Source of the DNA: a virus
Length of the DNA stretch: 64,000 nt
Strand: one strand, 5' to 3'
Virus record (IMG/VR): IMGVR_UViG_3300045988_155520
Span: 192,001-256,000 of that record
Shown here in pieces: positions 382-55,066 of the stretch. Positions within the stretch are counted from its first letter, which is position 1, and the number at the start of each line of letters is the position of its first letter. Position numbers and translations under genes: made by a program. A model generated the notes under the pieces. That model did not search any database. It saw nothing but the letters and a program-made list of their open reading frames with translations, and had not been told where the DNA came from.

Positions 382-1206
382 ATGGAAACAATAGCTGAAT
401 TATTAATAAAAATATCAACCATAAAAAATGAATTAAAAGAAACCATTAATTGTTTGGGTGGATTTGCTGATAATGATTTTACAAAATATAAGGAATATTT
501 AATTAAATTTTATATTGAGGGAGGAGGGGCTAATGGAAATTATATTGAAAAGTTAGAAATACCATCTTATGTAACTAATATTAGTAATTATAGGTTTAAG
601 TTGTCAAAATTTAAAGAAGTGGTAGTACCCAGTAGTGTTCAAGTTATTAATGATGGGGCGTTTTGTTATAACTCAAATCTTAAAAAAGTTACATTGAATG
701 AAGGTGTTATGAGTATTGGGAGTGAGGTATTTAGTCAATGTACGAATTTGGAGGAAATTAATCTCCCTGATAGTTTAAGTTATATGAACAATAAATGTTT
801 TGATAATTGTCAAAAATTGAAATCAATAACTTTACCAAGTAATTTACAAGGTCTTGGACAGAGTTGCTTTAATCAATGTAAATCATTAACAGAGGTTACT
901 TTTCCTAAGAAAATTAAAAATACAGGAAGTTACAGTTTTGGATGGTGTAGTGGATTAACTACAGTAACAATTCCAAAAACAGTAGGAAGTATTAGTAATA
1001 GTACATTTACAAACTGCACATCTCTAAAAAAAGTTATATTTGTTGAGGGGGAAAAAGAACAAAATCCATTCTTTCCACCATTTATGATGCGAGGTGGAAT
1101 AATTGAAGATAGCGCTTTTGAAAATTGTAAATCGTTAACTGAAATTACAATACCTGATGATTTTGAGAACTTGAGTAGAAGAGTTTTTTATAATGCAGTA
1201 ATTTAA
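382..1206 (+). CDS. BspA-type leucine-rich-repeat protein, 5' portion; frame breaks inside a repeat
   Basis: Repeats of the form (I/L)PxSVxxIxxxAFxxCxxLxxV: VPSSVQVINDGAFCYNSNLKKVTL, LPDSLSYMNNKCFDNCQKLKSITL, IPKTVGSISNSTFTNCTSLKKV. Confidence 0.8.
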   Translation: METIAELLIKISTIKNELKETINCLGGFADNDFTKYKEYLIKFYIEGGGANGNYIEKLEIPSYVTNISNYRFKLSKFKEVVVPSSVQVINDGAFCYNSNLKKVTLNEGVMSIGSEVFSQCTNLEEINLPDSLSYMNNKCFDNCQKLKSITLPSNLQGLGQSCFNQCKSLTEVTFPKKIKNTGSYSFGWCSGLTTVTIPKTVGSISNSTFTNCTSLKKVIFVEGEKEQNPFFPPFMMRGGIIEDSAFENCKSLTEITIPDDFENLSRRVFYNAVI

Positions 1207-2814: not shown

Positions 2815-3174
2815 TTAAACAGCTACAGCAGCCATTTCCACACCTCCAGCAGCGCCTTCAATACCACCAGCAAGACCTTCAGCACCTCCTGCCATTCCTT
2901 CCATTCCACCAGCAGAACCTTCTGAACTTCCACCTAAAGCATTTCCAGATAAGTTAGTGGAAGGAAGGTTGGAATTATTTGAAATATTTCCACCATTATT
3001 ATTCATTTTACCATCAACAGCATCTGAACCATTAGAATATCCATCTTTGAAATCTTTTATAGGATTCCATGACTTTATTTCATCTGGAACAAGTGAAGAT
3101 ACGCTACCATTTTCTTCAGTGTCTTCTTTTAAAAATCTTTTTATCTCTTCATTAACGATTTTTCTAATATTCAT
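2815..3174 (-). CDS. hypothetical protein with Gly/Ala-rich C-terminus
   Basis: 119-aa ORF. N-terminus MNIRKIVNEEIKRFLKE; C-terminus GGMEGMAGGAEGLAGGIEGAAGGVE. Last gene of a 4-gene reverse operon. Confidence 0.65.
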   Translation of the reverse strand: MNIRKIVNEEIKRFLKEDTEENGSVSSLVPDEIKSWNPIKDFKDGYSNGSDAVDGKMNNNGGNISNNSNLPSTNLSGNALGGSSEGSAGGMEGMAGGAEGLAGGIEGAAGGVEMAAVAV

Positions 3175-5753: not shown

Positions 5754-6527
5754 ATGGTATTTCAAATTGATAACAAGGATTTTGATTCTTCAATTTTTAC
5801 AAGATTCTCTAGTAATTCTAAATTTGTAAGATTATGTAATGAACTATACAATAGAATTGAGTGGGACTTAATGTTTACAAATGACAATGATGATAAAGAA
5901 TTTACATTTGAATACAAGCAAAACATTGTTGAATTTATTGATACAATAACACTTAGGGTTGTTATTATTCAAAACCGTATGTATAAACGTTTGCCTATTA
6001 TTCAATTTGATAATGATGAGGTAGTTAGTGGTACTAATCAGTTGAGTAATCCAACCGTCACTTTATTTTTGAATAGTATTGATAAAAAGGAATTTGTAGA
6101 GAATTTTGGTATGACAATAGATTTTCTAAATATTCTATGGAATACGATATACAAAAAGTACCACAATATTCAATGGGGTGAAATTCAATCTTTTGACCCA
6201 TTATCATGTGATATGACAATTCTTATTGAAATTTATAAATTATTTCCTCATTGGTCCCATGCAGGTATTACAATGCTTCATTTCACTGACCATGAAATGC
6301 TATTTCAAAAGATAATGAAAACTCAAGATGAAGTCTATTTCTTACAAAGATGGTTTTATACTATTGATGTTATTAATAAGGACGATAATGATTTTAAAAA
6401 TCATTTCACAAAAGCATTCAATGTAGATATTTCTGAATTTGAAAAATTAAGACAAAGGTTAATATTCATGTATTTGCTTTACTTGAGATATTACTCATTT
6501 ATTTCTAAAATGTTTTATAAAAAATAA
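5754..6527 (+). CDS. hypothetical protein, paralog of 6558-7352
   Basis: FTRFSSNSKFVRLCNELYNR and WFYTIDVINKDDNDFKNHFTKAF match FTSFSHDSKIVELCNELYEE and WLYTIDVTKKDDKEFEKLFTETF in the next gene. Confidence 0.75.
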   Translation: MVFQIDNKDFDSSIFTRFSSNSKFVRLCNELYNRIEWDLMFTNDNDDKEFTFEYKQNIVEFIDTITLRVVIIQNRMYKRLPIIQFDNDEVVSGTNQLSNPTVTLFLNSIDKKEFVENFGMTIDFLNILWNTIYKKYHNIQWGEIQSFDPLSCDMTILIEIYKLFPHWSHAGITMLHFTDHEMLFQKIMKTQDEVYFLQRWFYTIDVINKDDNDFKNHFTKAFNVDISEFEKLRQRLIFMYLLYLRYYSFISKMFYKK

Positions 6528-6557: not shown

Positions 6558-7352
6558 ATGAACGTACAAAGTTATAATAATAATTTTAATCTTTCAGAAT
6601 TTACAAGTTTCTCTCATGATTCTAAGATTGTGGAATTATGTAATGAATTATATGAAGAGGCAAAAAAGAATGTATATAAATGTAGTGAACATCTATCAGT
6701 AACATCGGTAAATAAATATACACCTATTGTAGATATTGAAATTTGTAATAGTTTATCAATGAGTATATCTATTTCACCAGATAACAATGTTAATATACCA
6801 TATTATATATTTAGTGATATGTTTCAGATGGTTAGTGATACTAACCAGTTCAATAATCTTACTATAGTTTTATATCTTACTAATTTTGAGAAAGAAAATT
6901 TTATAGAGTGTGCTGGACAAAGTATAGACCAAATTCTAAGAATTTATAATACAATCAATAAGAAAATAGATTATGATAAGTGGAATGATATAACTTCCAT
7001 TGATTCAACGAAAGAAAATATAACATATCTTTCAAGACAAATACTTAGCTTTTTGGAAGAAAATGCACGTATCGTTTATTGTATTAATAATCGTCCTGAA
7101 ACTTTAAACTCACAAGAACTGGACAAGATAAAAGAATATATAGATTTATTTAAGTGTTGGTTGTATACAATAGATGTCACGAAAAAAGATGATAAAGAAT
7201 TTGAAAAGTTATTTACTGAAACATTTTTTTCCTCTTATAATAGTAAACTCTCTGATTTTAATAACTTAAGAAATACTTTAATATTTGCATTATTCGAAAG
7301 TTTAAAACTTTACTCTATACTTCTAAAATATTTTAACAATGGAACAATATAA
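6558..7352 (+). CDS. hypothetical protein, paralog of 5754-6527
   Basis: Same length class and shared motifs. Its 3' end overlaps the methyltransferase start by 14 nt. Confidence 0.75.
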   Translation: MNVQSYNNNFNLSEFTSFSHDSKIVELCNELYEEAKKNVYKCSEHLSVTSVNKYTPIVDIEICNSLSMSISISPDNNVNIPYYIFSDMFQMVSDTNQFNNLTIVLYLTNFEKENFIECAGQSIDQILRIYNTINKKIDYDKWNDITSIDSTKENITYLSRQILSFLEENARIVYCINNRPETLNSQELDKIKEYIDLFKCWLYTIDVTKKDDKEFEKLFTETFFSSYNSKLSDFNNLRNTLIFALFESLKLYSILLKYFNNGTI

Positions 7353-8675: not shown

Positions 8676-9374
8676 ATGAATAAAGAAATAAAAAACATAG
8701 ATGGTATACTTTATCAAGTAATAGACACTAAACTCTATTATAAAGGGACTTTATATATAATAAATCAATCAATAGATAAATTACCTGATAATTTAGTTGT
8801 AGATGGAGACCTTATTATTCATAATTGTTGTTTTTTAAAAAGAATACCTCATAAATTGAATGTTAATGGCTCATTGTATATCAATGAATGTAATATAAAA
8901 TCATTACCATGTAGTCTGAAAGTGAAAAATAATATAACACTTATCGGCTGTAGACAATTTACAACACTACCAAATAATTTAAATATTAATGGTCATCTTA
9001 CAATTGTAAATTCACCGATATTATCAATACCAGATAATATACATGTAGGACAGTCAATCACATTACGTTCAACCTCTATACAAAAACTCCCAAACAACTT
9101 AACAGTTAAAAGAGAACTTACTCTTAGTCATTGTTATGATTTAACTGTTTTACCAGAAAATTTAAAAGTAGAATATAATCTTATTCTGGATAGTTGCATT
9201 AACTTGAATACAATTTCAAAAAATACAATAGTCGGAAGTTATATGACTTTGAAAGATTGTTTTAAACTTACAGAACTACCAGAAGATTTAAAAGTAGGAA
9301 ATTTTATATTCTTAAAAACCTCATACTTAAATAATATACCAAATCACTTAAAAGAAAAGGTGATGGTTTCATAA
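8676..9374 (+). CDS. repeat protein (LPDNL-x-V-x-G-type ~23-aa LRR-like repeats), paralog 1 of 3
   Basis: LPDNLVVDGDLIIHNC, IPHKLNVNGSLYINEC, LPNNLNINGHLTIVNS, LPNNLTVKRELTLSHC, LPENLKVEYNLILDSC. Confidence 0.75.
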   Translation: MNKEIKNIDGILYQVIDTKLYYKGTLYIINQSIDKLPDNLVVDGDLIIHNCCFLKRIPHKLNVNGSLYINECNIKSLPCSLKVKNNITLIGCRQFTTLPNNLNINGHLTIVNSPILSIPDNIHVGQSITLRSTSIQKLPNNLTVKRELTLSHCYDLTVLPENLKVEYNLILDSCINLNTISKNTIVGSYMTLKDCFKLTELPEDLKVGNFIFLKTSYLNNIPNHLKEKVMVS

Positions 9375-9392: not shown

Positions 9393-11456
9393 ATGAAACA
9401 AGAAAATAAAATATATAAAGAAATAGACGGTGTTAAATATGAAGTAAGAGATAATAAATACTTTTACGATGGTGACTTGAATATAGATAAAACAAATAAT
9501 GGTTATCTACCAGATAATTTAACTATATCAGGACATTTATATGCAGATAATTATGACAAAAATTTAGAACTCCCTAAAAACTTGACAGTTGGAGAAGATT
9601 TAAACTTGTATAATACACCAATAAAAACTTTACCGTCAGGTTTAATTGTAGGTGGAGATTTAGATGCAGACAATTGTACAATGCTGAAAGTTATACCTGA
9701 TTCATTAATTGTTGGAGGTAATTTAACTCTAAGCAATTGTACCAATCTCGTAGAACTATTAATTACTAAAGTTGGGGGGATATTAGATGTTGAAAACACA
9801 AAAATTAAAAAACTGCCAGATAATCTTATCGTTGGAGATTCCCTTTGGCTTGGATATACAAATATAACCGCATTACCAAATAAAATAACAGTAGGACGCT
9901 CCATTGATTTAAACGAAACCCCAATTGAATATATACCAAATGATATCGTTATTGGAGAAAATCTTATATTAAACAAATGTAAAAATATTTACACATTACC
10001 TGATAATATTACAATAGGTAATGACCTGTTTATTGAACGTTCAAATATTAAGACCTTACCACAAAATTTAACGGTGATAGGTGATTTGTTCTTATACTAT
10101 TACCAGAATATAAAAACTTTACCAGATAATATAATCGTACACGGAAATGTTTTTGCGGATGATTCAAGTATTAATAATACCTATGTTAATAAAATTATAC
10201 CCGAGAATGTAATCCATAAATTAAATGATTTACATAATATGGTGATTATATGGGAAAGAAATAATATAACATATATAAAAATAGGAAAACTCTTTACTGT
10301 AATTGATTCAAAATACCAAAACGTTTATCATGCACACGTACTCGGTGATGATACAAAACTATATATCTTAACTGACGGAGAAAATCATTGGGCATACGGA
10401 AAAACTAAAGAAGAAGCATGGATAAAACTTATGTACTCTATCAAAAGAGACCATATCATATACTATCATGATATGAGAATGAACACCAAAATTACAATAG
10501 AAGATGCTTCAAGTATGTTTAAAATAATAACAAATATATTTCATCAAGATATGAATAAAATTGATAACCCATTTAGATTTATACAACAAAAATATATTAC
10601 ATTAAATGATTTATATACACTGCTGAAACTACAATTCGGAAATGATGTGGTGGATAAATATATTAATGCCATAAATTCAACAGAACAATGCGATTGTACA
10701 GCGAAATATAACGATAATATTAAAACACTAACTGCATTTAAACCAATCATCATTACTCTTAATGGTGTGGGATTCTATAAAAAATTAAATCAAAAAATAC
10801 AAAAGCCATTCGATTCTAAGTTTAATAAACTTATGAATGAAACGCTTATATATCTTCTCGAAAATCTACCATATACAAAAGTTGGATATACATGGAGATA
10901 TGAAATGAATATCATTATTAATATTCCAACATATTTTAATACAAATGCACTGTGGAAAAGAGATGTATCAAAAATACAAAGTATTGTAGCATCAATGGCA
11001 AGCACATTCTTTACAAGAGAATATCATGAACTTTTCCAAACAGAAAATAATACAATACTCTTTGAATTTGATTGCCAAACATGGAATACACCAACAGTAG
11101 AAGATGCATATAATTGGTTAGTGTATAGACAAGAAGAATGTATTGATAATAGCATAAAACGTTTCGCAAGATTCTTCTTAACAATTGGAGAAATGAAAGG
11201 GAAGACATCAGAAGAACTTATCAAATATCTCATAGAACATTATAATACAAATTGGAATCATGAGAAAGCAGATAATAAGTTCGGAAGAATATTCATAAAA
11301 GAAAAAGTGATTCAATTCGATATAGATGAAAAAACAAATGAACAAAAAGTATATGGAAAAGAAGAATGGGAAAGATTATCAGTATTCTTCTTCACATTAA
11401 AAGATGAGAAAATAAAAGAGATTATTATCAACGAAATGAATAAAACAGATGAATAA
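9393..11456 (+). CDS. three-part protein: LPDNLTVGG-type repeats + shared central domain + C-terminal degenerate Thg1/TLP-like domain
   Basis: Repeats up to ~aa 260. Centre IWERNNITYIKIGKLFTVIDSKYQNVY...LTDGENHWAYGKTKEEA is shared with 11449-12648. C-terminus (about nt 10740-11310) has IIITLNGVGFYKKL, QKPFDSKFNKLMNE, LWKRDVSKIQSIVASMASTFFT, FDCQTWNTP...AYNWLVYRQEECIDNS. Confidence 0.7.
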   Translation: MKQENKIYKEIDGVKYEVRDNKYFYDGDLNIDKTNNGYLPDNLTISGHLYADNYDKNLELPKNLTVGEDLNLYNTPIKTLPSGLIVGGDLDADNCTMLKVIPDSLIVGGNLTLSNCTNLVELLITKVGGILDVENTKIKKLPDNLIVGDSLWLGYTNITALPNKITVGRSIDLNETPIEYIPNDIVIGENLILNKCKNIYTLPDNITIGNDLFIERSNIKTLPQNLTVIGDLFLYYYQNIKTLPDNIIVHGNVFADDSSINNTYVNKIIPENVIHKLNDLHNMVIIWERNNITYIKIGKLFTVIDSKYQNVYHAHVLGDDTKLYILTDGENHWAYGKTKEEAWIKLMYSIKRDHIIYYHDMRMNTKITIEDASSMFKIITNIFHQDMNKIDNPFRFIQQKYITLNDLYTLLKLQFGNDVVDKYINAINSTEQCDCTAKYNDNIKTLTAFKPIIITLNGVGFYKKLNQKIQKPFDSKFNKLMNETLIYLLENLPYTKVGYTWRYEMNIIINIPTYFNTNALWKRDVSKIQSIVASMASTFFTREYHELFQTENNTILFEFDCQTWNTPTVEDAYNWLVYRQEECIDNSIKRFARFFLTIGEMKGKTSEELIKYLIEHYNTNWNHEKADNKFGRIFIKEKVIQFDIDEKTNEQKVYGKEEWERLSVFFFTLKDEKIKEIIINEMNKTDE

Positions 11457-12648
11457 TGTAATAAAACAATTTGTTAAAGAAACTGGTTACAATTTAGAAA
11501 TAAGGAATGGAAAACCATATTATATTGGCGATTTGGATTTACGTGATATCACTATCTCATCTATTCCAAATGACCTAACTGTAGATGGAAATTTATTTCT
11601 AAAAGGCGATAACGCTAAATTGATGCCAGATAATTTAACAGTATTAGATAAATTATCAATATGGTGTGCTAATATTAAATCCTTACCTAATAATCTGATA
11701 GTAAGATATGGATTAGATTTTATAGACTCCACAATAGAAAATATCCCTAACAATACTGTTATTGGAGGATGGCTTAATTTAAGTGGTACAGCAATTACAG
11801 AGTTACCTGATAACCTAACCATTGGAGGAACTCTTTACCTACTTAATAGTAAAATCACTTCATTACCAAATAACTTAACTGTAGGAGGCGGAATTGATTT
11901 ATCTAATAGTTCAATTAAAACGATACCTCAAAACTTAACAGTACATACTTTTTTAGATTTAGGTGATACAAATATCACATCACTTCCAGATAATTTAACT
12001 GTAGGAGGTTATCTTGATTTGGAATATTCAAATATTATTAAAATTCCTAATAATTTAACTGTATATGGCTATCTTTGTTTGGAAGGCACAAAAATTGAAG
12101 AAGTACCAAATGATTCATTAATATATGGCTGTATATACTATAATGATAATCGTATGGTTCACCCATCACTCCCTTTAGAGGATTATGACAAACGTCAAAA
12201 ATTCCGAAATGAACCTATCTTCTGGGAATCTAATGGGGTGAGGTATATTAAAGTGGATGATATTCTTAGTATCATTGATTCTCAACATGGCAATGTTTAT
12301 CGCACTCATCAGGTCGGTTATGATAAAGAATTATATATTGTTACCGATGGAGAAAATAATTGGGCACATGGTGAAACCCTTAAAGAAGCAAAACTTGACC
12401 TAATTTATAAAATTTCAGACAGAGATACATCCGCTTACAAAAACATGTCACTTGATGATGTCTTGACGTTTGAAGAAGCTATTATAGCATATCGTACCAT
12501 TACTGGTGCATGTTCAGCTGGTACAAGAGATTTTATAGAACACCGACTACCAGAACCACGCAAGAAAACATATACAATAGGAGAAATTATTGAATTGACC
12601 GATAATGAATATGGTAGTGATAAATTTAAAGAGTTTTTTGGAAAATGA
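11449..12648 (+). CDS. repeat protein (LPDNLTVGG-type repeats + shared central domain), paralog 3 of 3
   Basis: LPDNLTIGGTLYLLNSKITSLPNNLTVGGGIDLSNSSIKTIPQNLTV..., then FWESNGVRYIKVDDILSIIDSQHGNVY...VTDGENNWAHGETLKEA. Confidence 0.75.
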   Translation: MNNVIKQFVKETGYNLEIRNGKPYYIGDLDLRDITISSIPNDLTVDGNLFLKGDNAKLMPDNLTVLDKLSIWCANIKSLPNNLIVRYGLDFIDSTIENIPNNTVIGGWLNLSGTAITELPDNLTIGGTLYLLNSKITSLPNNLTVGGGIDLSNSSIKTIPQNLTVHTFLDLGDTNITSLPDNLTVGGYLDLEYSNIIKIPNNLTVYGYLCLEGTKIEEVPNDSLIYGCIYYNDNRMVHPSLPLEDYDKRQKFRNEPIFWESNGVRYIKVDDILSIIDSQHGNVYRTHQVGYDKELYIVTDGENNWAHGETLKEAKLDLIYKISDRDTSAYKNMSLDDVLTFEEAIIAYRTITGACSAGTRDFIEHRLPEPRKKTYTIGEIIELTDNEYGSDKFKEFFGK

Positions 12649-12672: not shown

Positions 12673-12966
12673 ATGAAGAAAAATTTAAAATTAGAAAACT
12701 TACTTAGAGAATTTTTAAATATTATGGTAAAACGATATACTTGGCTTACTATAAAATTTGAATATAACGAAAATAAACAACAATATCTTGTATCATATTC
12801 ACCTAAAGATAGAATACAAAGTGATAATGAATTTATGACAGATAGTATGATGTTGGAAGATATGTTTAATGATTTTTTTGGAGAATATGCACCACTGTTC
12901 TGTGATGAAGAAGAATATTTCAAACTATCTCCTAATGCAGAAGTAATAAAATATGAAAGCAAATAG
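12673..12966 (+). CDS. hypothetical acidic protein
   Basis: 97-aa ORF with ordinary composition. The overlapping reverse ORF 12660-13016 is low-complexity and hydrophobic. Confidence 0.55.
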   Translation: MKKNLKLENLLREFLNIMVKRYTWLTIKFEYNENKQQYLVSYSPKDRIQSDNEFMTDSMMLEDMFNDFFGEYAPLFCDEEEYFKLSPNAEVIKYESK

Positions 12967-13009
12967 ATAAATAATAAAACTATAAAGTAATTTATATAGT
13001 ATACGAATA

Positions 13010-13040
13010 TAAGCATTGCGAAAATTAATCGTAGTGCTTA
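13010..13040 (+). terminator. hairpin + T-tract ending the forward block
   Basis: TAAGCATTGCG pairs with CGTAGTGCTTA (one wobble, one mismatch), followed by TTTT. Confidence 0.55.
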
Positions 13041-13426
13041 TTTTAGTTTTAATAAATCTATAGTAAAAAAAAAATGAAATATTAATATAGATACATAAAA
13101 AATGATGACCCTTCTGGAAAATATAAGAAAAAATTTTTTGGAAAATTTTTTTTGAAAGGGTATGGGTAAGAAAAAAGGCCCCATCATGGAAAACGGTGAA
13201 TTTTTTTGGAAAATTTTGGACGGAGAACCGTGGGCGTTCTCAAACACCCCCTTTTATGGCGGTGGGTAGGTGGGTTAAATAGGTGTCCCCCCCATAGGGT
13301 CTACCAATACTATATATTCAGTGAACAAATTAAAATTAAAGCATATTCTTTTTAATTCTAACCGCTTAATAAAATAAAATGATATAAGTTATCATATAAA
13401 TTATTTAAAGTCCTTACAGACGAAAT

Positions 13427-29384: not shown

Positions 29385-30119
29385 TTAACAACCTTTACAA
29401 CTTTCAATGTCGTTGTATGTTTCCTCTACATACTTAACAATTCGTTCATAGTTACGACCGCTTAACTCACTATCTTCATAAGCCTTCTTTATTAGTTCCT
29501 CGCTTGTTCCATAGAAACAACCTACTTTCCACATATTATTAGGACGTGTGTACGTGAAATAACGTCCGCTACTCCATATGTTCTTTCCAACATAATAATC
29601 AGACATTTCCTTAATTTCAACATTACCACATATCACTGCTTTACCTTTGACAGAAGTTTTAATAACTGAATTACCAAAAACAAGTACATTATCGGTAATT
29701 AAAGCATGACTATAAATCATGGCATTCTCATAAACTTGTGCATAATCATGAAGACTTGCATTTTCAAATATTTGGGCATTATCTGATAAAATAACATTAT
29801 CAAAAATCTTTGCATTGCCAAATACTTTTACATTGTCATAAACGGTCACATCATCAAAGATTTTTGCATTGTCATATATTTGTGCATAACCTGTAACAGT
29901 AGCGTTTCCACAAACACGTGCGTCACCATATACCATTGCCTCATGATAAATCCAACAATTACCTTTTTGAGAAAGGTTTTCCTCCTTCTCAACCCAACCG
30001 CCTAAGTCACCCTTATGAAGATTTCTAAAATCTCGTAATAGTTCAATACGATAGAGTTTGTGACCATTATATGACATTGTAAGGTCTTCTCTCAACTTAA
30101 ACTTCTTTTCTGTTTTCAT
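29385..30119 (-). CDS. beta-helix-like repeat protein (family BH, 2 of 4)
   Basis: Start moved to ATG 30119 (MKTEKKFKLREDL, CATAATTC context), parallel to the paralog starts. The track ORF extends 16 codons into the leader. Confidence 0.8.
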   Translation of the reverse strand: MKTEKKFKLREDLTMSYNGHKLYRIELLRDFRNLHKGDLGGWVEKEENLSQKGNCWIYHEAMVYGDARVCGNATVTGYAQIYDNAKIFDDVTVYDNVKVFGNAKIFDNVILSDNAQIFENASLHDYAQVYENAMIYSHALITDNVLVFGNSVIKTSVKGKAVICGNVEIKEMSDYYVGKNIWSSGRYFTYTRPNNMWKVGCFYGTSEELIKKAYEDSELSGRNYERIVKYVEETYNDIESCKGC

Positions 30120-30162
30120 AATTCTATTTGTTTTAATTGTTTGTTTACTATTGAAATACGAT

Positions 30163-30198
30163 TGCAAAATTAATCATAATAATTGAAACTACCAAAAA
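30163..30198 (-). promoter_or_regulatory. Bacteroidota-type promoter
   Basis: rc -7 TGCAAAA at 30163-30169 and rc -33 ACCAAAA at 30191-30197. Confidence 0.7.
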
Positions 30199-38637: not shown

Positions 38638-38653
38638 GTACTTATTTAAGTAT
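38638..38653. promoter_or_regulatory. 16-bp palindrome copy (GTACTTATTTAAGTAT)
   Basis: Overlaps the stop of 38646-39398. Lies upstream of the GTTAA element and the promoter at 38558-38592. Confidence 0.7.
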
Positions 38654-39398
38654 GACTCTCTATGTTATTATACATTTCTTCTACATATTTAATAACTCTT
38701 TCGTACTCTTGTCCGCTTAACTTACTATCTTCATAAGCCTTCTTGATAAGTTCCTCACTTGTACCATAGAAACAACCTACCTTCCACTTCTTATTTGAAC
38801 GTGTATAAACAAAGTAACGACCACTACTCCATGTATTCTTTCCAACATAGTAGTCAGTAATTGATTTTATTTCAGCGTCTCCACATATATGAATGTTCCC
38901 GTATATTTCAGTGTAACCATGAACTTTAACATTATCATAAATTTGTACATCATTGAATATATAAGCATTTCCATAAATATATGCACATCCAAATACCTTT
39001 ACATTGTTATAAATTTGTGCGTTATTAGAAATTCTTGCATTATCAAAAATGTGTGCATTATCATATACTGAAACATCATTTTGTAAAATTGCGCAATCTT
39101 GTATTTTTGAATTACCTCCTACTTCTGCATTGTCAGTAACAATAGCATATCCAAATACCTTCGCATTGCCACAAACTATAGCTTTTCCACTGACATGAGC
39201 ATTCTGAAATACCATTGCTTCATCATACACCCAACATGTTCCTCTTTGAGATAGATTTTCTTCTTTCTCAATCCATCCCCCTAAATCACCCTTCTTGATT
39301 TGATAAAAATCTCTTAGTGCTTCTATTCTATAAAGGGTAATGCCATTGAACTCCTTTGAAATATCAGTTCTAATTTTATACTTGTTTATCGCATTCAT
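38646..39398 (-). CDS. beta-helix-like repeat protein (family BH, 3 of 4)
   Basis: KYKIRTDISKEFNGITLYRIEALRDFYQIKKGDLGGWIEKEENLSQRGTCW plus GNAxV/DNAxI repeats. C-terminus DYYVGKNTWSSGRYFVYTRSNKKWKVGCFYGTSEELIKKAYEDS is nearly identical to that of 29385-30119. Confidence 0.8.
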   Translation of the reverse strand: MNAINKYKIRTDISKEFNGITLYRIEALRDFYQIKKGDLGGWIEKEENLSQRGTCWVYDEAMVFQNAHVSGKAIVCGNAKVFGYAIVTDNAEVGGNSKIQDCAILQNDVSVYDNAHIFDNARISNNAQIYNNVKVFGCAYIYGNAYIFNDVQIYDNVKVHGYTEIYGNIHICGDAEIKSITDYYVGKNTWSSGRYFVYTRSNKKWKVGCFYGTSEELIKKAYEDSKLSGQEYERVIKYVEEMYNNIESHT

Positions 39399-53651: not shown

Positions 53652-53800
53652 GATAGTTGTTCGTTAACAAATCCTAACAATAGTGTCAGCCTTGTTACTA
53701 ATCATCCACAGGTATCTCAACCTGCAGCGGAGCTATCTCTCATCGCCCGTATTAAGATGTTACGGGCACCATTAAGGTCTCTATGGACCTTAATTCCATC
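53652..53800 (-). ncRNA. omega-RNA (reRNA) scaffold candidate overlapping the tnpB 3' end
   Basis: Four hairpins on the reverse strand: GCCCGTA/TACGGGC (53745-53767), CTGCAGGT/ACCTGTGG, TAACAA/TTGTTA, TTGTT/AACAA. Ends at the element boundary. Confidence 0.6.
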
Positions 53801-55066
53801 ATACATAAACCACTCTTTTCCACCCAAGTTAGTCATTAACTCACCAGTAAAGCTATTGGTCTTGCTTGTGTATGACTCATTTTGTTCTACATACGCCACA
53901 CCGCACTCCTTGCACTTTTGCTTCAATCTCTCCTTAAACTCAAAGAATCGAAGGGATAGCATAGAGCGTACAATACTCTTACGTAGCTTCCTACCTTTCT
54001 TCGTCATTCCTTTTACCTCGAAAGGAGGGAATACTACGACAGAAAAATTGTGCACAAGGTAGTTTATACACTGCCAGTGCAATTCATCAACCAAGTCTTG
54101 TATTCTGTGGTACGTCCTATTAAGCGTGCGCTTCAGTTTACCTTTCTTCTTCTTATCCTTTGTTAATGCCAACCTGCTTAGCAGGTGGTCACGCTTAAGG
54201 TTAAGTGTTAGTATTCTGTCAAAGGCGTGTACACCAAGCCATCCAAATCGTCCATCTTCACTGAAGTAGGTAAGGAAATTCCTAACCCCAGGGTCTAAGG
54301 CAACAATACCACCTTGGCTTTCGGTCGGCATGGTTGTTATCTTCTGAGGTACGGAAAGATACCATCTTCCGTGGTCATAAATGAGACGACAATCACAGAT
54401 GTCATTTTTAAAAAACTCTCTTTCAGAGAACTTGAGTTTACCACTGATAGTGCGGTAAATTCCACTTGTTGACACAGCGGATTTAGGAATGTAACAACTC
54501 TGAACAGGGTTTTTACGAGTCTTATAATGCAACTTAAATGGTTTACCAGACTTCTTTGTTTTATTGCAGTTTGTCCACCATGAAGTGTAAGCGTCCTTTA
54601 CTGCAATCTTCTTTATCTGATATGGCACAGATTTAATATAGCTTTCAGTAAATTCAGCTAAGATTGTAGTACTCATTTTCATCCACCCTTTAATTTCAAT
54701 TTCTTTGCCGTTAAAGTGTTTAATGCAAGTATTGTACACCTTTCTTTCAACGCCAAACCACTGCTTAAAGAGTTGCTTTTGCTGTTGTGATGGATAAATC
54801 CTTATCCGTCTTGCCTTCGTCACTATAGTTCCTGGGTCTATGCATTCTTTATGTAAATGTATAAAGAGTTGCAAATAAGTATTCTGTGGGTTATTATTCT
54901 TAGATGTGACTTGTTTTGTAGAAAACCATGGTTTAACATTCATTGCACAGGAAGTGTTATCACATTCTGACATAGCACATTCTATGTCTTTGTGTGACAA
55001 CAAGTGTGAACTAATGCTTTTACATAAATCATCATAAAAAGTCTTATGGTCTTCCTGTACAGTCAT
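53717..55066 (-). CDS. tnpB: TnpB-like RNA-guided nuclease (IS605 OrfB family)
   Basis: RIRIYPSQQQKQLFKQWFGVERKVYN; GIVALDPGVRNFLT (RuvC-I D); VVFPPFEVKGMTKK (RuvC-II region); ESYTSKT...VHRDLNGARNILIR (RuvC-III D). Confidence 0.85.
   Translation of the reverse strand: MTVQEDHKTFYDDLCKSISSHLLSHKDIECAMSECDNTSCAMNVKPWFSTKQVTSKNNNPQNTYLQLFIHLHKECIDPGTIVTKARRIRIYPSQQQKQLFKQWFGVERKVYNTCIKHFNGKEIEIKGWMKMSTTILAEFTESYIKSVPYQIKKIAVKDAYTSWWTNCNKTKKSGKPFKLHYKTRKNPVQSCYIPKSAVSTSGIYRTISGKLKFSEREFFKNDICDCRLIYDHGRWYLSVPQKITTMPTESQGGIVALDPGVRNFLTYFSEDGRFGWLGVHAFDRILTLNLKRDHLLSRLALTKDKKKKGKLKRTLNRTYHRIQDLVDELHWQCINYLVHNFSVVVFPPFEVKGMTKKGRKLRKSIVRSMLSLRFFEFKERLKQKCKECGVAYVEQNESYTSKTNSFTGELMTNLGGKEWFMYDGIKVHRDLNGARNILIRAMRDSSAAG

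Follow-up and report, generated by a model that had tools for sequence, protein, structure and literature searches.

A Thg1/TLP-family domain lacking its two-metal site, linked to a leucine-rich repeat scaffold in phages of the human oral cavity

Thg1, the tRNA-His guanylyltransferase, and the Thg1-like proteins (TLPs) are, to our knowledge, the sole polymerases working in the 3'-5' direction. The locus considered here raises the question of what a domain of this family may do when its catalytic centre has been taken apart and when it stands at the end of a leucine-rich repeat (LRR) protein encoded by a phage. The gene in question (9393..11456, + strand, as are the other genes between 8676 and 12966) lies in a stretch of 64,000 nucleotides, positions 192,001 to 256,000 of the IMG/VR virus record IMGVR_UViG_3300045988_155520, which we call the window. 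It codes for a protein of 687 amino acids (aa), identical to the metagenomic protein P0001, in which an LRR block, a central domain and a Thg1/TLP-like domain are fused. A preliminary description, made from the DNA letters, had placed a degenerate Thg1-like domain of ~190 aa at 10740..11310. The open reading frame is present as claimed and that interval, corresponding to aa 450-640, falls within the domain, which is however longer than supposed (~250 aa; aa 434-687, 10692..11453) and has the complete fold of the family, including the palm, the fingers and an extended beta-hairpin.

Membership of the Thg1/TLP superfamily

The C-terminal 254 residues of the protein are a true evolutionary member of the Thg1/TLP superfamily. 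The Pfam profile PF04446 (Thg1) matched aa 443-567 with 60.6 bits, above its curated cutoff of 29.2 (E=2e-16), and PHROG 4717, named 'tRNA-His guanylyltransferase', matched over aa 441-649 (E=7e-29); the Thg1C profile of Pfam gave no match to the 687-aa protein. When PDB sequences were searched with phmmer, the TLP of Bacillus thuringiensis (4kgk, E=3e-14) and human THG1 (3otb, E=1e-4) were recovered, and in the HMMER alignments to these two proteins all five sequence blocks that had been proposed beforehand pair with the predicted Thg1/TLP blocks. A model of aa 434-687, built by AlphaFold2 (AF2) on an alignment of 56 sequences (A3), had a mean predicted local distance difference test score (pLDDT) of 85 and a predicted template modelling score of 0.84. 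Foldseek matched this model to Thg1/TLP structures: the top 32 matches in the PDB all belonged to this family, with template modelling (TM) scores of 0.61-0.84 (best 4kgm, TM 0.84, E=1e-16), and those that followed were generic palm domains with E>0.05. As the modelled fold is partly imposed by the alignment, the sequence statistics constitute the independent evidence.

Within the superfamily the domain occupies an isolated branch. An exhaustive HMMER search of 1.84 billion representatives yielded 2270 family members, among which the two representatives of the domain's own clade alone scored below 1e-30 (<1e-170); the next relative had E=5e-28, and the nearest canonical relatives are ~30-35% identical to the domain. 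Its distribution is equally narrow. The exact 687-aa protein was found in human oral metagenome contigs of 250-313 kb with ~28% GC, which points to a jumbo phage without a close deposited relative, and no match to the locus emerged when 50,697 deposited phages were searched by megablast. Its assignment to the phages is based on contig size, on gene content and on relatives that are members of IMG/VR; tblastn with two further proteins of the window gave no indication of lineage or host. The inactivated domain was found only in one clade of human oral phage contigs of this size, and its fusion to the LRR scaffold in only six protein clusters (P0001-P0006) of a collection of 5.8 billion proteins. 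The clade was not found in 185,579 GTDB species genomes, which thus give no hint of a prophage or of the host.

The catalytic centre and its maintenance

Residues were compared using the alignment with human THG1, a MAFFT alignment of 153 sequences and A3, and conservation was counted in the 146 nearest representatives among the 2270 family members. The functions of the residues concerned are known from several enzymes. In the structure of the B. thuringiensis enzyme (BtTLP), D30 and D75, the equivalents of human D29 and D76, coordinate two Mg2+ ions, the glutamate E76/E77 points away from the metals, and the D75A change nearly abolishes activity (PMC3701042). In the complex of the Methanosarcina acetivorans enzyme (MaTLP) with tRNA, D21 and D69 are the ligands of Mg A and Mg B, the incoming nucleoside triphosphate (NTP) is gripped by a clamp of R19, R83, K86 and R114, recognition of the 5'-terminal base pair and its alpha-phosphate falls to R136 and N137, and the tRNA elbow is bound by the beta-hairpin (PMC4820378). 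The roles of D29, R27 and H34 follow from PMC3701042, PMC4820378 and PMC9508852.

Against this background, both catalytic motifs of the phage domain have been remodelled. In the first (10755..10778), where the family has R-x-D-G-R-x-F-H/S, we find T455-L-N457-G-V459-G-F-Y462: human R27 has become T455 (K in some relatives), the Mg2+ ligand D29 N457, R31 V459, H34 Y462 and, as read from the motif NGVGFY against human DGRNFH, N32 G460. The second motif (10893..10907), Q-S-D-E-I in the family, reads W501-R502-Y503-E504-M505 in place of human Q74-S75-D76-E77-I78, of which D76 is the other Mg2+ ligand. Elsewhere, R92 is replaced by D524, D150 by E582 and R130, an invariant R/K of the clamp for the incoming NTP triphosphate (PMC4820378), by Q562 (11076..11078). 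The changes of RIDG to TLNG and of SDE to RYE, noticed in the preliminary description, were thereby borne out. Its count of two replaced carboxylates out of three was right too, but the view that all three bind metal has to be corrected, as the replaced two are the Mg2+ ligands and the kept glutamate lies off the metal (PMC3701042). The erosion suspected there proved more thorough than had been seen, affecting S75, R27, R130, R92 and H34 in addition to both metal ligands.

Considered by function, the two metal-coordinating carboxylates are absent in all clade members, N457 and Y503 standing in their place. The triphosphate clamp (human R27, R92, K95 and R130) is dismantled to T455, D524 and Q562, with K527 (K95) alone kept. 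Among residues of the activation step and of nucleotide contact, K471 (K44) is kept, and S75, H34 and N32 are changed to R502, Y462 and G460, respectively. The reader of the RNA 5' end, R579-Q580 (11127..11132; human R147-Q148), which contacts the terminal base pair and alpha-phosphate (PMC4820378), is kept and invariant in the clade; its equivalence to MaTLP R136-N137 is assumed from the census of family columns rather than from a direct alignment with MaTLP. D474 (D47), E504 (E77) and N586 (N154) are also kept, as is the KxGR motif ahead of the beta-hairpin. The hairpin itself is present in the AF2 model, with K-x-x-W where canonical TLPs have R-x-x-W.

These replacements are fixed: D29 to N, D76 to Y, S75 to R, R27 to T or K, R130 to Q, R92 to D and H34 to Y are found in all members of the clade. 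Among the nearest representatives, S75, D76, E77, K95, D128 and R147 are each present in 146 of 146, R or K at position 130 likewise in 146 of 146, and D29 in 141 of 146. Out of 27 columns that are at least 80% conserved in the family, 21 are kept in the 687-aa protein, and the six that changed (D29, Q74, S75, D76, I78 and D150) all lie at the catalytic centre. D128, invariant in the nearest representatives, is D, N or Y inside the clade, as would be expected if catalytic constraint had been lifted. No partly eroded intermediates were found: all 45 sequences of A3 from outside the clade and all 146 representatives are canonical, and the phage TLPs examined outside the clade keep the catalytic Asp and Glu residues in the D...QSDE...(R/K) arrangement.

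Thus, the two-metal site is missing from the domain, as is the greater part of the triphosphate clamp, and this state is fixed in the phage clade. In human Thg1, D76A kills both adenylylation and guanylylation and R27A kills guanylylation (PMC9508852), and D76A is the standard catalytically inactive control for TLPs (PMC5041481). Since the 687-aa protein lacks the equivalents of both D76 and R27, loss of catalysis is probable.

One could argue that substitutions so specific, invariant and clustered in the active site, with E504, K527, K471 and R579 kept around them, mark an enzyme of different chemistry, either metal-independent or using a single metal through R502, Y503, N457 and E504, for instance by a covalent Tyr-nucleotidyl or Tyr-RNA intermediate or in 5'-end capping or decapping. 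An arginine can stand in for the charge of a metal, and tyrosine is the nucleophile in other nucleic-acid enzymes. We consider such an enzyme improbable, as the superfamily holds no known precedent for it, the two aspartates are used in all solved structures and the nearest relatives are canonical (D29 in 141 and D76 in 146 of the 146), R27, R92 and R130 of the triphosphate clamp were dismantled as well, and D128 is no longer constrained.

The loss of catalytic residues could also signify that the domain is a decaying remnant of a once-active phage TLP, drifting to loss, and the D-to-N and D-to-Y changes do follow the AT bias of the genome (28% GC). The selection analysis largely refutes this idea, to which we attach next to no likelihood. 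The domain is under purifying selection, with Nei-Gojobori dN/dS ratios (nonsynonymous to synonymous divergence) of 0.14-0.42 across five phage loci, and 160 of its 254 positions are invariant in the 11 protein clusters of the clade, which are 79-93% identical. When the full fusion was compared with its P0004-type relative, dN/dS was 0.26 for the LRR block, 0.36 for both the central beta part and the linker, and 0.28 for the Thg1-like domain. Between the two types of fusion the Thg1-like domain is the most conserved part (87% aa identity vs 48% for the LRR), and it is intact in 13 of 13 loci despite repeated rearrangement N-terminal to it; the 21 retained family columns likewise speak against decay. 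A codon-level test of selection on the new residues is uninformative, since the 13 loci examined do not differ by a single nucleotide in the WRYEM block.

The LRR scaffold and the possible role of the domain

The part of the protein that precedes the Thg1-like domain is shared with its neighbours. The preliminary description had recognised a central domain common to the neighbouring paralog, and indeed aa 13-418 align over the entire 399-aa product of the downstream gene (11449..12648) with 34% identity (E=2e-64); the cap, LRR and central regions are collinear in the two proteins, and the central-domain hidden Markov model (HMM) matches the 687-aa protein with E=9e-61. The N-terminal cap (aa 1-32, 9393..9488) aligns with the N-terminus of that paralog and carries the motif IDG..Y.V.D.K.YYxGdL, which is found also in the 232-aa LRR protein encoded upstream. 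It is followed by the LRR block (aa 33-262, 9489..10178), in which eleven units spaced by 20-21 aa were counted, in agreement with the ~11 repeats of LPDNLTVGG type reported earlier. Their consensus, LxLxxTxIxxLPDNLxVGG, fits the short bacterial-type pattern LxxLxLxx(N/T/C)xLxxLPxx. The 687-aa protein itself has no Pfam LRR match, and among NCBIfam models XopL alone reached E=0.004, matches to SlrP and XopL being weak; the assignment is based on register and spacing, on these weak matches and on homologs of the block that carry PF23598 (LRR_14), PF12799 (LRR_4), PF23952 (LRR_EndoS) and PF13306.

The central domain consists of a beta subdomain (aa 263-357, 10179..10463; alignment A4, AF2 pLDDT 81) and a helical subdomain or linker (aa 358-433, 10464..10691). 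Its intact form, ~145 aa of beta sheet and helices, is represented by aa 256-399 of the 399-aa paralog and by the homologs P0007-P0078, and contains the motifs TDG..AHG and YRxITGAC.GT. In 31 diverse members without the fusion, D298, D328, H335, K349, R353, Y358, Y376, R377, ITGAC with C383, Y402 and E406 are invariant or nearly so, eight of them (D298, H335, K349, R353, R377, C383, Y402 and E406) being 97-100% conserved. The 399-aa paralog keeps all the invariant polar residues. The copy in the fusion is degenerate, with G298, Y335, S349, D353, F376, K377, N381-I382-F383 (so that ITGAC reads ITNIF), I402 and D406. Conservation of this kind suggests an active or ligand-binding site, and the central domain, with which many LRR proteins of phages end, looks like an enzyme or a ligand-binding site. 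No relative of it was found by fold in the PDB (best E 0.66), by profile among PDB sequences, in Pfam or in PHROGs, and its matches in BFVD were other unnamed LRR proteins of uncultured phages only. Other members of the family end right after the central domain; addition of the Thg1-like domain is therefore specific to this phage clade.

Sister phages carry alternative forms of the gene, namely a 326-333-aa protein made of the helical subdomain and the Thg1-like domain, and a 519-aa protein with LRR, helical and Thg1-like parts. Fused, partly fused and free forms all occupy one locus. We considered that the free-standing forms might be artefacts of frameshifts or split genes, and rejected this, as they have their own ATG ~10 nucleotides (nt) after the stop codon of the upstream 232-type LRR gene or its remnant. 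The Thg1-like domain is accompanied in every case by the helical subdomain, whose origin lies in the central domain of the LRR family: the linker of the fusion is the part kept at the N-terminus of the free-standing proteins, to which it is 38% identical (21% to the tail of the paralog). At every locus examined, the Thg1-like gene and the next one, for a 399-415-aa LRR and central-domain protein, share 8 nt at the stop codon of the former and the ATG of the latter, so that the two are translationally coupled in all these loci. The Thg1-like domain is thus always linked to an LRR and central-domain scaffold, either fused or translationally coupled.

How, then, might a domain of this kind be used? 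The explanation which we favour, and in which we place about even confidence, is that a dead member of the Thg1/TLP family serves as a non-catalytic binding or adaptor module on an LRR scaffold, possibly for RNA 5' ends or tRNA. The domain would no longer add nucleotides, and its old substrate cleft, lined by W501, R502, Y503 and Y462, would bind something without chemistry, flanked by the 5'-end readers R579/Q580, K527 and K471 and by the elbow-binding beta-hairpin. The likeliest ligand would be a tRNA-like RNA end (5' end or acceptor end) or a nucleotide, and binding of tRNA or of an RNA 5' end would be compatible with the kept R579/Q580, K527 and beta-hairpin, as would the sequestering or sensing of host tRNA proposed in the preliminary description. 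The Thg1-like domain may serve for recognition, or as an adaptor, within a complex whose LRR solenoids would hold a protein partner, and activity may be supplied by the intact central domain of the 399-aa paralog, with its conserved Asp/His/Lys/Arg/Cys site. The gene lies in a hypervariable accessory block that also contains a DNA methyltransferase and several paralogs with LRRs, a setting suggestive of host takeover or counter-defence. In its most elaborate form, the proposal would be that jumbo phages have repurposed a 3'-5' polymerase fold to read, without catalysis, the 5' ends of RNA or the acceptor ends of tRNA, the metal site being rebuilt as an aromatic/Arg pocket (W501-R502-Y503, Y462), and that this reader is the recognition subunit of an effector complex, where a host protein would be captured by the LRRs and some reaction catalysed by the central domain of the 399-aa paralog. 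This full version is speculative, and we regard it as rather unlikely to hold in every part.

Several observations weigh against a binding module for RNA. Four phosphate-contacting arginines are gone, which could abolish binding of RNA ends along with catalysis, and the cleft might just be filled by the bulky side chains of the W/R/Y/M substitutions. The net charge of the hairpin is 0, compared with +2.8 +/- 1.9 in canonical TLPs, which makes it less basic than theirs. Scans for tRNA genes and Rfam RNAs found none in the window or in seven related loci, and hence no candidate RNA ligand nearby. Interaction with the 399-aa paralog is deduced from gene order and linker homology only. Finally, A3 consists mostly of canonical Thg1/TLPs, hence the AF2 fold arises partly by construction, and the model bears on the fold rather than on side-chain geometry.

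Some of these points fit another possibility, that the dead domain is kept solely as an architectural module, which tetramerises the LRR and central scaffolds and raises their avidity for a protein target while binding neither RNA nor nucleotide. Thg1 proteins and TLPs do form dimer-of-dimer tetramers (PMC3701042, PMC4820378), and the loss of both metal ligands and most phosphate-binding arginines, the absence of a basic hairpin and a cleft that W/R/Y/M side chains could plug are all in keeping with it. On the other hand, free-standing forms devoid of LRRs are common and equally conserved, K527, R579, N586, D474 and E504 near the active site are invariant without an obvious structural role, and the W-R-Y substitutions are strictly fixed, with no sign of drift. 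We therefore rate a purely architectural function as a minor possibility.

A further alternative starts from the active relatives of the domain. Pseudoenzyme paralogs often act as decoys or dominant-negative forms. As a mimic of an active TLP, the phage protein might poison the TLP tetramer of the host or of a competing phage, or titrate a host factor or defence sensor which recognises TLPs or their RNA products. That canonical TLPs are common in phages (113 deposited genomes) and that the gene lies within a hypervariable accessory block would suit such a function. Yet mixed tetramers are unlikely given that the nearest canonical relatives are only ~30-35% identical, a search with the family HMM found no second, canonical TLP in the 64-kb window, and the PADLOC defence models gave no match, leaving no related defence family. 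A decoy is in our opinion a poor candidate.

The locus and its neighbouring genes

The gene for the 687-aa protein is preceded by the LRR-only paralog of 232 aa (8676..9374), which relatives have in the same position, either conserved or reduced to a remnant, and beyond the 399-aa paralog the + strand unit is closed by a conserved 97-aa gene (12673..12966), after which a terminator-like hairpin is found in the window (13009-13041). A promoter scan of this AT-rich DNA gave hits at chance level. Between the window and two related loci (L006 and L007), synonymous divergence (dS) was 0.03 for the 399-aa paralog and 0.34-0.39 for the Thg1-like domain. This contrast between 9393..11456 and 11449..12648 indicates recent recombination breakpoints at or near the gene boundary. 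The mosaic pattern recurs between the two fusion types, where dS was ~1.1 for the LRR and 0.26 for the Thg1-like domain; the Thg1-like module thus behaves as a cassette recombining onto different scaffold N-termini. Gains and losses of genes cluster at this locus.

Upstream, the segment 6558..8595 contains a 264-aa gene and an N6/N4 DNA methyltransferase, the latter being present at the locus only in window-type phages (L004 and L018) and absent in five others (L001, L006, L007, L009 and L017). The 264-aa gene (6558..7352) and the preceding 257-aa gene (5754..6527) are tandem paralogs with no family match, of which one or two copies lie upstream of the LRR block in all relatives. Genes resembling TnpB/IS605 OrfB, with a Cas12f1-like TNB domain, occur in the window (53717..55066, - strand), in L006 (3736..5106) and in L009 (1855..3057), and their differing positions in the same accessory region suggest active transposition. 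Two paralogs of PHROG 7964 (29385..30167 and 38646..39398, both - strand) are ~45% identical to proteins of temperate Streptococcus phages, which in some records are mis-annotated as 'glycerol kinase'.

The repeats of the locus vary as well. P0002 (707 aa; L018, from position 3001) exceeds the window gene by one LRR of 20 aa and matches it exactly in DNA at every aligned codon (dN = dS = 0), which implies a copy-number polymorphism of LRRs between otherwise identical phages. A separate BspA-type LRR_5 protein of 274 aa (382..1206, + strand, Pfam E=1.5e-49), whose class of repeat differs from the LPDNL type, is conserved in relatives with a length of 232-317 aa. The LPDNLTVGG-type block is promiscuous (P0029-P0120), being fused N- or C-terminally in bacteria and phages to the NEL E3 ligase, PcfJ, DnaJ, cytidylyltransferase and other domains, of which PcfJ is the commonest. 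In an element with 67% GC (L013, 2761..5849; also L014 and L015), a canonical TLP (P0304) is encoded directly downstream of a 678-aa PcfJ-domain protein, with an RNA ligase, an NTP_transf_2 protein, a Macro domain and an AcrVA2-like gene nearby. A recurring association of TLP, PcfJ and LRR is possible, but the PcfJ protein of L013 has no LRRs, and the case is hence anecdotal.

Significance and comparison with known systems

All studied members of the Thg1/TLP family are enzymes, as far as the literature searched goes. A fold that is kept under selection while its two-metal site is specifically dismantled points to a second, non-catalytic use of the Thg1 fold. What TLPs do in bacteria, archaea and phages is largely open (PMC5041481), and the clade described here, as a natural 'substrate-trap' version, could reveal the in vivo ligands of phage TLPs. 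Through its coupling to LRR scaffolds it also gives access to the LRR and central-domain proteins of phages, a widespread and uncharacterised family encoded in hypervariable regions of large oral phages that probably serve in host interaction. If the complex reading RNA ends is real, no pseudoenzyme of the Thg1 family would precede it, and it would add a new type to the phage machines for host takeover or counter-defence. The literature searched contained neither an inactive Thg1/TLP nor an LRR-Thg1 fusion, in accordance with the earlier statement that the architecture is undescribed. What is new here is most likely the Thg1-family pseudoenzyme on an LRR scaffold; the Thg1/TLP fold and phage TLPs were already known.

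Among characterised proteins, the bacterial and archaeal TLPs (B. thuringiensis, 4kgk/4kgm; M. acetivorans, 5axk-5axn) come closest, having the same fold (TM up to 0.84) and length and agreeing in 21 of 27 conserved columns. The domain also shows features of the TLP type, namely no Thg1C match, a KPFD motif, S at human N155 and a long beta-hairpin, and it retains, as TLPs do, the acceptor-end reader Arg and K95. It differs from them in having N457 and Y503 for the Mg2+ ligands, in the replacement of S75, R27, R31, R92, R130 and H34, in being embedded in or coupled to an LRR scaffold, and in its sequence (~22-30% identity, isolated branch). Canonical TLPs of phages (PHROG 4717), found in Bacillus, Aeromonas, Erwinia and Fusobacterium phages and in Prevotella Lak megaphages, share with it the phage location; as they are annotated in 113 deposited genomes, the presence of a TLP in a phage is not new. 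The best deposited match to the domain is the TLP of a Lak megaphage (32% identity, E ~1e-25), and an 'M...K' subgroup (P0279 and P0172) is closest to it in sequence. All canonical phage TLPs examined keep D...QSDE...(R/K) and are single-domain proteins, none of them fused to LRRs.

On the side of the scaffold, the tandem LRRs of 20-21 aa with an LPxxL segment are shared with short bacterial-type LRR effectors such as IpaH/SspH/SlrP, XopL and YopM, and a repeat block of the same LPDNL type stands next to NEL E3-ligase domains in the Endozoicomonas fusion proteins P0063 and P0074. Unlike the IpaH/SspH-type effectors, the 687-aa protein has no NEL or other E3 domain (in Pfam searches NEL, PF14496, appeared only in the distant LRR relatives P0061, P0063, P0073 and P0074) and carries Thr or Cys at the Asn-ladder position. 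No secretion signal was recognised in it by eye, and the partners of its repeats are the central domain and the dead Thg1-like domain.

For the use of an inactivated enzyme we would draw an analogy with ADAT3, which accompanies ADAT2, and Trm6, which accompanies Trm61, both being catalytically dead paralogous subunits of tRNA enzymes. In these cases, as may be so in the phage protein, an inactivated enzyme fold is kept as the binding or scaffolding partner of an active protein. The folds are unrelated, however, and the partner presumed to be active in the phage system would be the central domain of the 399-aa paralog, which belongs to another family than the dead domain.

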